Part shown: positions 10,803-59,972 of the stretch, piece by piece
Position numbering within the stretch: the first letter of the stretch is position 1
How the letters are laid out: each line of letters starts with the position of its first letter
From: Octopus vulgaris
Lineage: Eukaryota
Direction of reading: 5' to 3'
Assembly (NCBI GenBank): GCA_951406725.2
Contig: OX597826.1
Coordinates: 15,624,001 to 15,688,000 of the forward strand
DNA: 64,000 nucleotides
Notes under the pieces: generated by a model
Databases searched by the model: none
What the model saw: the letters and a program-made list of their open reading frames with translations, nothing else
Told to the model about the DNA's origin: nothing
Position numbers and translations under genes: made by a program

Positions 10803-11202
10803 ATCTTTTCTACTCAAAGCAAAGGCCCGAATTTTTGGGGAAGGGGCCAGTCGAATAGATCGATCCCAGCATGCAACTGGTACTGAATTTATCGAACCCG
10901 AAAGGATGAAAGCCAAAGTTGACCTCGGCGGAATTTGAAATCAGAACATTAAAGACAGACAAAATACCTATTTCTTTACTACTCACAAGGATATAAACAC
11001 AGAGAGGACAAACAAGGACAGACAAACGGATTAAGTCGATTATATCGACCCCAGTGCGTAAGTGGTACTTAATTTATCCACCCCAAAAGGATGAAAGGCA
11101 AAGTCAACCTCGGCGGAATTTGAACTCAGAACGTAACTGCAGATGAAATACGGCTACGCATTTCGCCCGGCGTGCTATCGTTTCTGCCAACTCGCAGCCT
11201 TA
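10803..11202 (-). mobile_element. SINE family B, dimeric variant with duplicated body
   Basis: The block AAAGGATGAAAG..AAAGT..ACCTCGGCGGAATTTGAA occurs twice (about 10900-10940 and 11085-11125); single head at about 11160-11202. Confidence 0.9.
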
Positions 11203-11628: not shown

Positions 11629-11718
<90 letters not shown>

Positions 11719-11748
11719 GAAAGTTGGTTTGTGAAAGCACGTCGTTGA

Positions 11749-12027
11749 ATATATAGAAAATAGTAAAAACTGAAAAACTACAGAAGGCTTAAAGGTTAAA
11801 AAATATATATATTTTCGTCAATATGTCTGAAGAATATTAAAAATTTTTTATAACGTCGTAAGAAATTTGAAAAGCTAAACGCGAAACCGGTCTTTCTTCT
11901 AAACTATATCATTGTAAGGAGAAAAAAAAAGAAAAAAAGAATTTTTAACATTCTTCAGACATATTGACGCAAATATATATATTCTTTAACCTTTAAGCCT
12001 TCTGTAGTTTTTTCAGTTTTTACTATT

Positions 12028-12038
<11 letters not shown>
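11749..12038. repeat. ~97-bp inverted repeat with ~95-bp spacer containing an HHR-like motif
   Basis: 11749-11845 is the reverse complement of 11940-12038 with about 4 differences; spacer has AAGAAA-T-TTGAAAA-GC-TAAAC-GC-GAAACCGGTC-TTTCTT. Confidence 0.9.
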
Positions 12039-12077
<39 letters not shown>

Positions 12078-12174
12078 TATATATATATATTTATAAAATT
12101 AGATTAAAAAAATATATTTTAACAATTCAAAATGAACAATTAAATTACAAATAATATTCCCTCAACTAATTATT

Positions 12175-12224
<50 letters not shown>

Positions 12225-12232
<8 letters not shown>

Positions 12233-12838
12233 TTTTTATTGCTGAAAAAAGCGAAACTGCAGTCTAAGATGAACAGAGTTAGTAAAATTTTTTATTTTCA
12301 TTTCGCTAAATTTATCAAGCTTCTGTGTTTCTAGTACATACTTCGCCTTTAATGTACTTATATATGAATAATATATGGCCTGTGCTAGAAACACCAGCGA
12401 TAATAATTAATTTTATTTTATCGCATTTCGAATTTGTTTACATATTTCTCGATAAATTTTGAGCGTTAGACTATATACCAGAATTCCCTAGTTTGTCGGG
12501 TTCGTTCTGCATCTGCGCAGTGATCTGATTAGTTAGAAAGAGCAAATTAGTAGACGCACATGTGTCTATCGAGTTGCGTTTCATAATAACAGGAATCTTA
12601 CTGAAGAGCCTACTTGAGTAAATAAATATTATTTTTATTGCTGAAAAAGGCGAAACTGCAGTCTAAGATGAACAGAGTTAGTAAAAGTTTTTATTTTCAT
12701 TTCGCAAAATTTATCAAGCTTCTGTGTTTCTAGTACTTACTTCGCCTTTAATGTACTTATATATGAATAATATATGGCCTGTGCTAGAAACACCAGCGAT
12801 AATAATTAATTTTATTTTATCGCATTTTGAATTTGTTT

Positions 12839-12840
<2 letters not shown>
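12225..12840 (+). mobile_element. Retrozyme-like or PLE pseudo-LTR partial tandem (399-nt unit, ~1.5 copies)
   Basis: 12225-12440 is repeated at about 12625-12840 with few differences; bounded by (TA)n on both sides; contains one full and one half HHR; no real ORF. Confidence 0.8.
12595..12669 (+). ncRNA. Type I hammerhead ribozyme, canonical core
   Basis: AUCUUA-CUGAAGA-GCCU-(36 nt, partly paired)-AGGC-GAAAC-UGCA-GUC/UAAGAU. Stem I 6 bp, palindromic UGCA loop 3, predicted cleavage after 12663. Confidence 0.85.
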
Positions 12841-12888
<48 letters not shown>

Positions 12889-13233
12889 GCGAAAGATCTA
12901 GCTGGAGTGCCAACATTCCGATATTCTGTAACAGGGCTTAGAAAGACTGAAAGACCGATGCAATACAGGTGTCAATGAACTTTTCAGCATTCCTCGTATA
13001 TACTATGTTAACTCGAATGCCGGAAAATACACCAAGCAGTTGCTTCTAGGAAAACCAGAAGACATTGTTCTGCAGAATTGGCTCGAAGTCATAGAAGATC
13101 GGGATTTAATGGTTATCTATTGTTTCTCTTCTATACTCAATTTACGTTATCTTCTCGTTGGGAAATTCATTTACGTTTAAGCGCAATTACATTTCATTTC
13201 TTTCGGAAAACTCAGGAGGTATATATCTGTATG

Positions 13234-13277
<44 letters not shown>

Positions 13278-14513
13278 AACATAAAGATATATATACATAT
13301 ATATATATGTTAAATGGTTGAATAAGATTCATCCTTTAATTTGGAGGTCTCTATTTTTAACCTCTCTTCTCCATTTCTATAAATTTACAACACATATACA
13401 TACATACACACACATATATATATAATAATACACACACACACATATATATAAAAGAATAAAACTAAACTGCAATCCATCGTTTCTGAGTAATTTTTCTTCC
13501 TGTAATATATATTTAAGATAACAGGCCTATTAACATTATCATCACATAGAATCTATTAAAATGCGTGTGTATTTGGATGTCTGTATCGAATGAGGTAGAA
13601 GGTAATGAAAAACAAAAATACATAAACGATATTCACAATTAAAAGCTCTCATATTTATATTCATATATAAAGGAGTATATACGGACGCGTAAACAATGCT
13701 GCACTGTTGTACTAATAGTATTCAGCTGTTACCGTTTATTTATTAATAATAACGTATCATATGTAATGTGTAATACATATGTGATATATATTGTGGTAAC
13801 CGATACAAATTTTACTGTTTTATGAGTTTAATTACTGTAGAAATCCATTCACCCACAACCTCGTCACTCATAACTGAGAAATAAACTGAAACCTACTGCT
13901 ATTTGTCCAAGTGTGTTTGAACATATCTCACAGTGACGACTAAAAATTACATTGTTTATCCTTTAATTATCCTTTACTTCTTTTTGCAGTTTATTCAGGG
14001 AGGAAAGTGTAAAGAGCAGATCAGTAAGATATGACGAGGGACAACTGGAAGCGAAGCATTTATCCTAAACCAGAAGTATGATCCGAATATTACTACAGAA
14101 TGAAGTCTTCTAGAAACCCCTAAGTCATTAAATCGTCCAGAAGATGAAGTCTGCCATCAATTTAAATTGCTATCGTTATACACATAACAGTATTGCTTGT
14201 GTTGAGATTCACAAGTGCAACGCATACAGGCACAACGCAATCTGTACGTATATCAAAAGGTTAATTTAGTACAGAGATACAGTAAACTTTACACACAGAG
14301 GCATTCCAAATATTCCATGACAAAGTTAACGTGAATGCAGAATAATATTTGTATCACCAACGTATGTGTGTGTGTGTGTGGGGGGGTGTCTGTGTAAGTA
14401 TATCTGACTATTTTGAGCATGAAATACGTATAACATAATATTAGTAAATATTCTCATCAAATTCAAATATTTGGAGTCTTTCATTGTACATAAATGATTT
14501 CCTTAAACAGTAA

Positions 14514-17280: not shown

Positions 17281-17394
17281 AATATATATATATCTATATA
17301 CATATATATACATACATACATACATACATACATACATACATACATACATGCACACATACATACATATATGCATGTATCAGTCGCCATGATAGTT

Positions 17395-17590
17395 CGTTAG
17401 CCACTACACACGTTTCTCTCTCTCCTTTTTCCTCTCCTTGTTTTTTCTGTGTTCCTTTCTGTAGAAGAGCGTAGGCTCGAAACGTAAAAGACTTTTTCTA
17501 TTTCTGAGCGTTATACCAATACATCCGTTTGTTTTGTACACCACCTGTCTTCGTCTTTTGTTTTTTGTTATTTTTCATAAACTCTCCCTA
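17395..17590 (+). mobile_element. Short HHR-family repeat, best copy
   Basis: CTTT-CTGTAGA-A-GAGC-GTAG-GCTC-GAAAC-GTA-AAAG at 17455-17490; 3' block TGTCTTCGTCTTTTGTTTT shared with 54850 and (reverse) 21765-21785. Confidence 0.7.
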
Positions 17591-18329
17591 CATACATATA
17601 TACATACATGCACATATATTTTGTTGTACCTAAGGATACGGATTTTGACACCGTTGTTAATACACGTACAGATTCTATTCCATGCCCTTATTTTTACTCA
17701 ACTGGTTGAATATCTAACTAGTTAATCGATTGTTTGTTTGATTTGAATAAACAATCAGTCATTTGCTATAAAATTAGCATGCATTGTAGGTCTCCCGGTA
17801 TGTGACCTGCCATGAATATCAAAACTAGTCGTGAAACTGTAAATTGATAACAGAATGTGAGATTGCTTCAACCTAATAGAATTCAAAATTTATTTTCCTG
17901 CTATTACGTGTCCCCCTATTTGCTGTGAAATTTGTGCTTTCTACAATTGCGTTTTATTCCTTCTTAATTATAAACTATCATTTTGTTCTATTTAGTTTTA
18001 GATCCCCCTAATAAATAGTGATGATTGTCAATGATTTAAGGCTGTTTGCGTGACATATTGGAATATGACATTGCTTTTTAGAGGGATGTCTTACCAAGAA
18101 ATAATTCTCCATGTCGTAATCGTTTCAGAAATCTGAAATAATTGGGTTGTGTGACAGTGAACTTACTGCAAAAGTTACTTTACTATGACAGCCCGTGTTT
18201 TCTCGAAGTTTGCTGTTCGAGTAAAAGATTTTGAAATTGAAATCTCTCGGCTATTTTGATGCGTCTTTGATGCATATCTTTAGATTTTTATCATAATCTC
18301 TCCTTAGATACAACAAAATATATTTCAGC

Positions 18330-20730: not shown

Positions 20731-21678
20731 CATATATATATAAATATATATTTCTATGTATGTATGTATGTAGGTAGGTAGGTTGATAGGTAGGTAGGTA
20801 TGCGTATGTGTGCACACGCGTGTGTGTATGTCCATATATATATACATATATAAATACACACACATGTATATAAACACACACATATACATACGTATATGTG
20901 TATTTATAACTATAAACACATACACATGTAAACATAGATTGACGCACACACACATGTATCTCTCTATTTATCATCTATCAGTCTATCTATCTGTGTGTGT
21001 GTGTGCGTGTGTGCGTGTGTGTGTATTTGTTTAAAATCTTACATATATACCGTTTCGTTTTATATAGGAGAAATCTATTGTGCAAATTTCATTCAGGTCC
21101 TGAGAGTAATGAAGAAAATGCAAATGTAGAAATTTCAAAATCGAATATACTTAAATACTTTGTTTCCGTCGAAATAGAGAAATGGATTTAGACAACGAAA
21201 AGTGCATGGGAATTGTCTAACACTAAGTGGGCTATTTACTTACCCGATACATTAATGAACTGCCCTTCCTGATAGATACAAATGAGCAAATACAGCTCTC
21301 GTGAATTCTTTCATTGCTTTGATATGTCTGTGTTGACACAAATAGAGAATTGGCGAAATTATATAAATTAAGAATCATTTACAAACATTGCCAAGAAATG
21401 TACTTTCGAAGATGTATGTAAATATGCATGTATGATCCTTTGTGTGTAAGTATGGAGCCATGTATAGCTATAAGAATATAAGTGTGTATAGAAGCTGGTA
21501 TGTATGTTTGCATATATGTATGCACGTATCTATATCACGGTACGTATGTACAGTATGTAAGTATGTATGGTATGTATGTATATATATACATATACATATA
21601 TAGGTATATGTGTATATATATGTATATATACATATTTCAGTAAATGTATATGTATATATATATATATATCAGTAAATG

Positions 21679-21740
<62 letters not shown>

Positions 21741-21820
21741 TATAGTACAAATTTATTTACAGAAAGCAAAAGACGAAGATAGGTGTAGGAAAAACAAGCT
21801 AATGCTCGGGGAAAATGGAA

Positions 21821-58878: not shown

Positions 58879-59452
58879 TAAAATTATTAAAATTTTGTTC
58901 AAACATCGCTATAGAAAATGGGTTATTAGCTAATATTCAATTGGGTATACAACAAAAGTTTACGATAGAATTTGTTATTCTGGGTAACTTTCTGTAAAAT
59001 TATTAAAATTTTGTTCAAACATCGCTATAGAAAATGGGTTATTAGCTAATATTCAATTGGGTATACAAAAAAATTTTACGATAGAATTTGTTATTCTGGG
59101 TAACTTTCTGTAAAATTATTAAAATTTTGTTCAAACATCGCTATAGAAAATGGGTTATTAGCTAATATTCAATTGGGTATACAAAAAAATTTTACGATAG
59201 AATTTGTTATTCTGGGTAACTTTCTGTAAAATTATTAAAATTTTGTTCAAACATCGCTATAGAAAATGGGTTATTAGCTAATATTCAATTGGGTATACAA
59301 CAAAATTTTACGATAGAATTTGTTATTCTGGGTAACTTTCTGTAAAATTATTAAAATTTTGTTCAAACATCGCTATAGAAAATGGGTTATTAGCTAATAT
59401 TCAATTGGGTATACAACAAAATTTTACGATAGAATTTGTTATTCTGGGTAAC
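58879..59452. repeat. 116-bp tandem repeat, ~5 near-identical copies
   Basis: AAATTATTAA recurs at 58881, 58997, 59113, 59229 and 59345; I saw only two variable positions. Confidence 0.97.
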
Positions 59453-59972
59453 GTTTCGTTTCTGCCGTAATGATTTCAAATGGGCTCATTCGAAAAAGTA
59501 AATAGAAATAGTCTAAGGCTTTACTCTTCTGGGAAAGTCTGTGGCTTGGTGCAGTTTCTTCAGAAAAATCACCGAAAGAAACAGTTTTTAAATTTTCACT
59601 CCATTCAGGTACCAATTCGTTTTCTTTATCGATGTCGGACTCACTGTTTTCACTTTAATAGCTGCAAACTTGCAAAGACAAAGGGGGAGAAGGGTGATAG
59701 CGTCAGTGAAACAATTCGCTCCCTTTGTGTGTGTGTGCGTTTGCGTGTGGTGTAAACCACATTAAGAAAAACATTTGACATACACACCAGAATGTGAGTT
59801 TTCTGTAAATTTTGCTTAATTGGAGTTTAAATTTTAAAAACTGGACCTGGCATGACCCGATGCATTCTACTCTTAAAAATGCTAGGTAAATTGTAATTGA
59901 AGAAATCCTATATTGTAGATTTCTATAACTTACAAAGGGAGGCAGATAAAATCTGCCTTTTATAATAAGAGA
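59453..59972 (-). mobile_element. Possible Helitron 5' portion
   Basis: Minus strand begins A|TCTCTTATTATAAAAG, similar to the 58529 end, followed by hairpin GGCAGAT..ATCTGCC; no 3' CTAG end identified. Confidence 0.4.

Follow-up and report, generated by a model that had tools for sequence, protein, structure and literature searches.

An insertion of about 1.5 tandem units at positions 12233-12838 of the window (the whole 64,000-nt stretch of octopus DNA analyzed here) is probably a 5′-truncated copy of a dispersed animal non-LTR retrozyme, spread by a Penelope-like element (PLE) from a circular RNA that predicted ribozymes cut and that was re-ligated. The first-pass annotation had called the element a non-LTR retrozyme, and this class assignment holds on every DNA-level test. 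Insertions of the family look PLE-like: they are truncated at the 5′ side, end 3′ at a fixed internal site, lie in microsatellites, and include partial tandems and inverted heads.

The window copy comprises a 5′-truncated unit (12233-12439) followed by a full unit (12440-12838). It and the unit features described below lie on the plus strand, between two stretches of an unstranded (TA)n target on the 5′ (12174-12228) and 3′ side (12841-12886), which match the flanking TA runs noticed earlier. Positions 12220-12439 and 12619-12838 form a direct repeat of 95% identity at a spacing of 399 nt; 5 substitutions among the 200 positions compared bear out the claim that the copies differ at few sites. 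The same 399 nt separate two GTC sites (12262-12264 and 12661-12663), present exactly as described. The extent proposed at the outset, 12225-12840, stood with respect to the repeat layout but not to its limits: homology stops at 12838, and TA microhomology obscures the exact 5′ junction within 12226-12233.

As the first-pass annotation had it, the second GTC site lies in a complete type I hammerhead (12595-12669) and the first in a 3′ half only. The complete motif matches Rfam RF00163 at 36.3 bits (gathering cut-off 34, E = 2.3e-7), with its core at 12601-12607 and 12652-12655 and cleavage predicted after 12663. Its stems are helix I, ATCTTA/TAAGAT (6 bp), helix II, GCCT/AGGC (4 bp), and a 2-bp helix III with the palindromic ACTGCAGT. 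Upstream, from about 12233 to 12270, remain the 3′ arm of helix II, GAAA, the palindrome, GTC 12262-12264, and the 3′ arm of helix I; the 5′ half is missing because of truncation. Beyond its 4 bp, helix II continues through an internal loop into a further hairpin of ~8 bp, an extension of ~30 nt. This extension probably explains why a whole-window Rfam scan with fast filters at the gathering level returned no hits and missed the hammerhead. Since hammerheads with an extended helix II slip past default Rfam scans, such families are probably undercounted. A genome-wide RF00163 search returned six other motifs, none belonging to the 399-nt unit family. Elsewhere in the genome, another family of hammerheads (108 nt, at 1501-1608 of loci L164, L165, and L168) has a long helix II and a palindromic ACGATCGT loop 3 and exceeds the Rfam cut-off; its L164 member lies within an inverted repeat, and the family is possibly another retrozyme or a PLE end. 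The best Rfam score in the genome (45.5 bits) belongs to a lone compact type I hammerhead that is not in a tandem repeat (L163, 1501-1547). The window also holds five 116-nt AT-rich tandem copies of 99% identity (58879-59457), in which no hammerhead was seen.

Between the two cleavage sites lies a predicted monomer or circle of 399 nt (12265-12663), with a folding z-score of -2.36. The region is low in GC (27% over 12001-14000) and the claim that it holds no real ORF was upheld: all six frames of the circularized unit contain 7-15 stops per round, and the longest ATG frame spans 37 aa. An endless ORF running round the circle was rejected on account of these stops and of a unit length that varies from 397 to 404 nt across the family. 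A tRNA search found none, and with a fixed internal site at one end and ragged 5′ ends at the other, the family shows no LTR/PBS/PPT layout. The further stem reported for the unit was recovered as a long hairpin (12325-12394, arms 12325-12338 and 12381-12394; second copy at +399), followed by a short hairpin (12397-12424) directly before an internal copy of the priming site. This site (12436-12445, GTTT|ACATAT) is TA-like and predicted to be mostly single-stranded, and genomic copies end here; in the window copy, the fixed 3′ end falls at 12835-12838, where priming-site sequence is joined to the TA target. A predicted long-range stem of 9 bp (12308-12316 with 12451-12459) would enclose both hairpins and the priming site (12308-12459).

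The unit belongs to a dispersed family in this 2.8-Gb genome (227 contigs), with unit lengths of about 399-404 nt. Exact patterns matched 96 hammerhead cores, 196 3′ halves, and 282 + 103 3′-end motifs, figures that count motifs rather than loci, whereas the reversed patterns matched none in each case; with 96 exact cores against 0, the hammerhead family is not a chance match. Elements were taken from part of the roughly 385 places with a 3′-end motif. Blastn defined 132 elements from loci L001-L162, after removal of two cut loci and of duplicates; seven of these loci had no blastn match, five being copies of about 21-28 nt and two unrelated. Arrays reach 5.8 units. A younger 404-nt subfamily is 82% identical to the window copy and has a GUA cleavage triplet. 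At least two intact hammerhead cores occur in 18/126 elements, and one in the window copy; two consecutive complete hammerheads are the criterion of Li et al. for an active element. A minor lineage carries U4C in the hammerhead core (7/128 units). In its members L043, L047, L141, and L153, CCGAUGA replaces CUGANGA, and an A-C mismatch is present at the base of helix II. The lineage nonetheless has several copies, some longer than one unit, and may spread without cleavage.

The unit is also present in sequencing runs X1-X20, which cover three organism labels (A, B, and C) and eight studies. The four runs examined carry several subfamilies, and the family is therefore common to close relatives or populations. 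None of the runs that contain the unit is recorded as RNA. Three runs presumed to be RNA, and one presumed to be DNA, gave contigs that span the unit together with its 12838-to-12440 junction. Such contigs carry no information on ends, strand, or level, and they are no evidence of circles because tandem DNA makes the same joint.

The 3′ end falls at one unit position (12439 = 12838 of the window) in 126/132 elements. Among elements chosen by ribozyme or whole-unit match, regardless of 3′ motif, 90/93 end there too. The 404-nt subfamily shares this end in 37/39 elements, with 20 loci of the subfamily having been chosen via the 3′ motif. Of the six exceptions among the 132 elements, two are pieces that are inverted or partial and on the opposite strand; the others are a segmental partial copy, a degraded element, an old diverged one, and one that ends at another TA-like spot. 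The idea of permuted genomic copies is thereby refined: it holds for 5′ ends, whereas 3′ ends are fixed at one internal priming site, and random permutation of both ends is rejected. No more than 20 nt separate the 3′ end from a TA run in 125/126 elements, and the 5′ end from one in 108/126, compared with 7.6% of random 20-mers from the window. Direct flank duplications of at least 12 nt were found in 4/126 elements, three of them within repetitive or palindromic flanks.

Inside arrays the priming site reads GTTT-ACATAT or GTTT-ACGTAT, whereas termini mostly read GTTT-ATATAT, sometimes with C or CG retained. The junction therefore lies within 12439-12445, at a sequence that mimics the target, and this TA-like microhomology is situated 175 nt beyond the cleavage site. 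Predicted folds of four subfamily copies place the priming site in a mostly unpaired linker after the two hairpins. The 3′ arm of the predicted 9-bp closing stem lies downstream of the genomic end; as the stem is nearly invariant, covariation neither supports nor contradicts it. The optional 30-40-nt tail from a second start site, a PLE trait, is absent from the unit, which has one dominant 3′ end. Inverted heads occur in the unit copies L135, L227, and L245. The inverted segment inside L245 (1152-1930) has its own end at the fixed priming site, as though each strand of the target had primed at the same RNA site.

By contrast with the fixed 3′ end, 5′ ends are spread over the whole unit, and copies range from about 21 nt to 5.8 units. 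The lengths of 60 copies fit an exponential distribution with a mean of 279 nt (KS p = 0.14; copies on contigs 1-5 with an exact terminal motif, outside the 404-nt subfamily, six very short ones being entered as 25 nt, and none with a changed motif). Of these copies, 6/60 are long enough for two ribozymes. Among elements that reach it, 106/107 pass the first cleavage site, and 30/32 pass the second. A pile-up of 5′ ends at cleavage sites was sought and rejected (four ends within 3 nt against 2.9 expected, p = 0.36). From a cleaved linear monomer, cDNA could extend over 175 nt at most, the distance at which the priming site follows the cleavage site. The templates were therefore continuous at the cleavage sites, as re-ligated circles or uncut multimers would be.

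Two young Neptune-type PLE families, A and B, are candidate helpers in the same genome (L199 at G000:C3:86384500-86390300; L221-L226). Both encode a reverse transcriptase (RT), a CX4CxxC linker, and, at the C-terminus, a GIY-YIG domain in open frames of at least 800 codons (850 and up to 1214 codons from stop to stop), and for each family 150/150 among the matches scored show 95-100% identity. Both end in (TA)n, and tandem copies read TATATAT or GTT-ATATAT behind the end; they use the same TA-like junction logic as the 399-nt unit. The 3′ end of family A takes two positions, separated by about 43 nt. The hammerhead motifs in both families are minimal ones like those reported in PMC4209133. When the unit was compared by blastn with 52 loci of the two families, it matched co-located unit copies only, and other, more distant PLE fragments also exist in the genome. 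Since no sequence is shared with the unit, nearby pieces vary, and other PLEs exist, families A and B are candidates only. Chimeras arising by template switching between unit and PLE were rejected: nearby PLE pieces lie at varying places and on varying strands, mostly across a TA run. The window itself contains, just upstream of the unit copy, an inverted repeat (11707-12037) in which a pair of terminal-repeat fragments from family A (86-92% identity with L199) stands head to head; a minimal motif resembling a hammerhead of U3/A8 type occurs near 11860-11895. It is a separate insertion in the TA run neighboring the unit copy. Older fragments related to family B are found at 2169-2460, 10969-11083, 17376-17619, and 21654-21797.

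Whether circles or linear multimers served as templates can be approached through alleles within arrays. Adjacent units differ at 144/14,442 sites (1.0%), against a median of 7.2% between elements; subfamily-specific sites agree within an element in 1257/1285 cases, and rare alleles are common to both units in 21/57 elements. In the young subfamily, alleles that run through a whole array differ from one long array to the next (three in L242, which has five identical units, one each in L247, L236, and L230, none in L248), so no array copies another or one long master. Alleles common to only some units occur in L008, L236, L248, and L004; long arrays are therefore not simply one monomer repeated, and in the first three the pattern points to multimeric templates or to local duplication and conversion. 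In the 5.8-unit array L004/L050 (G000:C19:53546379-53548697), units three apart share three private alleles, and an assembly-wide search for these found two matches, both in L004/L050 itself, and no source locus. A trimeric circle or multi-step local duplication could produce this period of three.

A linear template is the rival that deserves most attention, and we regard it as a less probable account that still commands real weight. It holds that PLE-type priming took place on linear read-through RNA, transcribed from a tandem master locus and left uncut, that arrays grew later by unequal exchange or slippage, and that the hammerhead is a passenger or transcript trimmer. A fixed 3′ end and read-through of the cleavage site are predicted equally by this account, the partly shared alleles agree with it, and within-element differences recur between elements more often than in simulations (12 vs 5.9, p = 0.015), a mild excess that inheritance from linear arrays would give and that argues against circles. 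Published work lends it further support: the hammerhead is dispensable for insertion in vitro in the anole PLE, where uncut RNA is the main substrate (PMC11167929), 8/9 Xenopus retrozyme dimers showed no cleavage in vitro (bioRxiv 10.64898/2026.07.22.740005), both of which count against circles, and Li, Clavereau and Pollet lean towards local tandem growth in the same preprint. Yet daughters of a linear template can only be shorter than their parent, the private alleles differ between long arrays, and any two independent elements have at most one internal difference in common; several of the recurrent differences fall at CpG or TA-run sites. The period-three alleles are unique to the 5.8-unit array, and one unequal crossover from a 2.8-unit array cannot yield them. 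The ribozyme itself has been kept by compensatory changes across subfamilies up to 18% apart (helix II GCCT/AGGC, GTCT/AGAC, or GCCA/TGGC; outer pair of helix I from AT to CG), which would be pointless if cleavage had no role. Among 18 representatives, 95% of stem cells are paired and three pairs changed on both sides; these were chosen by hand from 69 distinct, related sequences, and core conservation figures partly reflect the search pattern. On balance, circles are considerably more probable than linear multimers as templates. The earlier proposal of reverse transcription round a circular RNA fits the family data, though these do not separate it fully from uncut linear multimers.

Far less weight falls on two other explanations, both improbable. 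The unit could be the terminal repeat (pLTR) of an autonomous PLE and its copies the truncated ends of that element, as the insertion anatomy is of PLE type, Xenopus retrozyme units are homologous to pLTRs (bioRxiv 10.64898/2026.07.22.740005), and each protein query returned about 18,000 PLE candidates, part of them scored. The first-pass annotation had named constant attachment to a PLE ORF as the observation that would speak for a solo pseudo-LTR. Instead, 0/126 full-end elements are contiguous with an ORF, and no examined element, in loci that include 94/96 of the exact cores, extends upstream into an ORF or UTR (judged from junctions at loci L227-L266 and by tblastn at other loci); the extension is always another unit. 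The unit ribozyme is canonical with long helices, in contrast to the minimal motifs of families A and B, and a search for a short-loop hammerhead with the same palindrome gave two unconvincing matches, neither with a fitting helix I. The unit may, long ago, have originated from a pLTR. Marginally less improbable is mobilization by another retroelement, such as an endonuclease-bearing LINE with a TA preference, or copying at the DNA level. LINE-like ORF fragments are also common in the loci, and the link to a PLE protein is an indirect one. Priming, however, takes place within a unit that continues beyond the site and not at the 3′ tail of an RNA, the junction recurs in the two local PLE families, and partial tandems and inverted heads are described marks of PLEs (PMC8557442, PMC11167929). 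Spread by a PLE from a re-ligated circle therefore remains our preferred reading.

A cycle consistent with this reading would start with transcription of a copy holding two whole hammerheads (at least about 640 nt). The hammerheads would release unit-length RNA, probably aided by pairing of the helix III palindromes, and a host ligase would close it, by analogy with coral, mussel, and axolotl retrozymes. A PLE protein would then nick (TA)n, ACAUAU/ACGUAU, which follows the cleavage site at a distance of 175 nt, would pair with the nicked end, and synthesis would proceed round the circle until random fall-off. The genomic record of this step consists of the fixed 3′ end, the TA target, and the scattered 5′ ends; the enzyme and the circle are presumed. 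Only products longer than about 1.6 units could re-enter the cycle, and the window copy, with 1.5 units and one whole ribozyme, is probably a dead end.

The first-pass annotation had further suggested that paired palindromes could let the intact core cleave the upstream site, a possibility that is geometrically sound in models. Metazoan type I hammerheads are an established case in which a palindromic helix III allows cleavage as dimers (PMC4209133). The hybrid of 8 + 6 bp is nested and all Watson-Crick. In constrained folds of 12229-12838 it reaches -133.4 kcal/mol, compared with -131.1 for the monomer fold and -137.8 without constraint, that is, 2.3 kcal/mol better than the monomer fold and 4.4 above the free minimum. 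In the ensemble, the pairing probability is about 0.3 for the palindromes and 0.0 for the hybrid helix I; these figures leave tertiary contacts and Mg2+ out of account. Nearest-neighbor folds also speak against the preferred reading, with the active hammerhead 6-7 kcal/mol above the minimum and a helix I probability <0.1. As 18/126 elements carry at least two intact cores, cleavage through the palindrome hybrid is not needed for the proposed cycle.

The element class was already known, and what sets this family apart is an unusually clear insertion record. Copying of circles by PLEs into insertions longer than a unit was proposed in 2014 and 2020, and for the return of animal retrozymes from RNA circle to genome, PLE enzymes, target priming, and more-than-unit copying have been proposed rather than shown. 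In the accessible portions of the literature we found neither a cephalopod retrozyme nor a fixed priming site with read-through statistics, a survey whose scope ended short of repeat libraries and of the supplement of PMC7229834, which covers further invertebrate retrozymes. The words "ribozyme" and "retrozyme" have 0 occurrences in the accessible text of a 2026 octopus repeat paper (PMC13282606). This young family supplies a nucleotide window for priming, a target, a processivity curve that ignores the cleavage site, and arrays with private alleles. Together with the two young PLE families of this genome, whose ORFs are open and whose junctions are of the same type, it makes the model directly testable in vitro. 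A bolder reading, which we put forward tentatively and consider doubtful in its full form, is that the family is a tape record of rolling reverse transcription on ribozyme-made circles, the templates being monomers and, on occasion, dimers or trimers (as in the period-three array on contig 19), and that this parasite recruits a Neptune-type PLE by RNA shape and a TA-mimicking priming loop without sequence kinship between unit and helper. If true, it would provide a defined RNA, a start site, a target, and two intact candidate enzymes with which to test the unproven retrozyme cycle.

Among known systems, the closest are the animal non-LTR retrozymes (Cervera and de la Pena 2020, PMC7229834), non-coding tandem units of 150-450 nt that are low in GC (<50%) and contain a canonical type I hammerhead. 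The octopus unit shares their size, low GC content, type I hammerhead, lack of an LTR/PBS/PPT layout, and coexistence with PLEs; mussel units measure 350-390 bp, and copying of circles by PLE enzymes was proposed in the same work. It departs from them in its helix II, extended by ~30 nt, and in occurring mostly as short dispersed insertions in hundreds rather than thousands of copies. A fixed priming site, 5′ truncation, and TA targeting are traits of the octopus unit not described in the accessible part of that paper. Plant LTR retrozymes, with a type III hammerhead in LTRs, PBS/PPT, and a 4-bp target duplication, differ from the octopus unit, whose hammerhead is of type I and which lacks an LTR layout. 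As in vertebrate non-LTR retrozymes (Li, Clavereau and Pollet 2026, bioRxiv 10.64898/2026.07.22.740005), PLEs co-occur and monomers, dimers, and multimers are found. Vertebrate families, for which these authors argue a pLTR origin, are often pLTR-homologous (24/57 to annotated elements), whereas the octopus unit matches neither PLE family A nor B. The window copy would not count as active under their two-ribozyme rule.

Comparison with PLEs themselves concerns the mode of insertion. In Poseidon of Anolis, internal initiation and AT-rich targets were shown in vitro (Frangieh et al. 2024, PMC11167929). In both Poseidon and the octopus unit, reverse transcription has an internal start at a stem-loop that follows the hammerhead, and genomic ends map to the start site. 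Poseidon has two start sites that are not homologous to the target, whereas the octopus unit has one dominant site with TA-like microhomology and no ORF. The Neptune and Naiad PLEs described by Craig et al. 2021 (PMC8557442), along with non-autonomous Chlamys elements, MRC1 among them, share with it partial tandems, inverted 5′-truncated heads, a (TA)n bias that hides target duplications, and multicopy head-to-tail non-autonomous insertions. The octopus unit differs from the non-autonomous Chlamys elements, most of which have no hammerhead and whose 3′ ends are similar to those of their partners. From an autonomous PLE or a solo pLTR it is set apart by flanking no RT + GIY-YIG ORF in the examined elements and by its lack of homology to the 52 PLE loci. 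The unit works like a non-autonomous PLE passenger.
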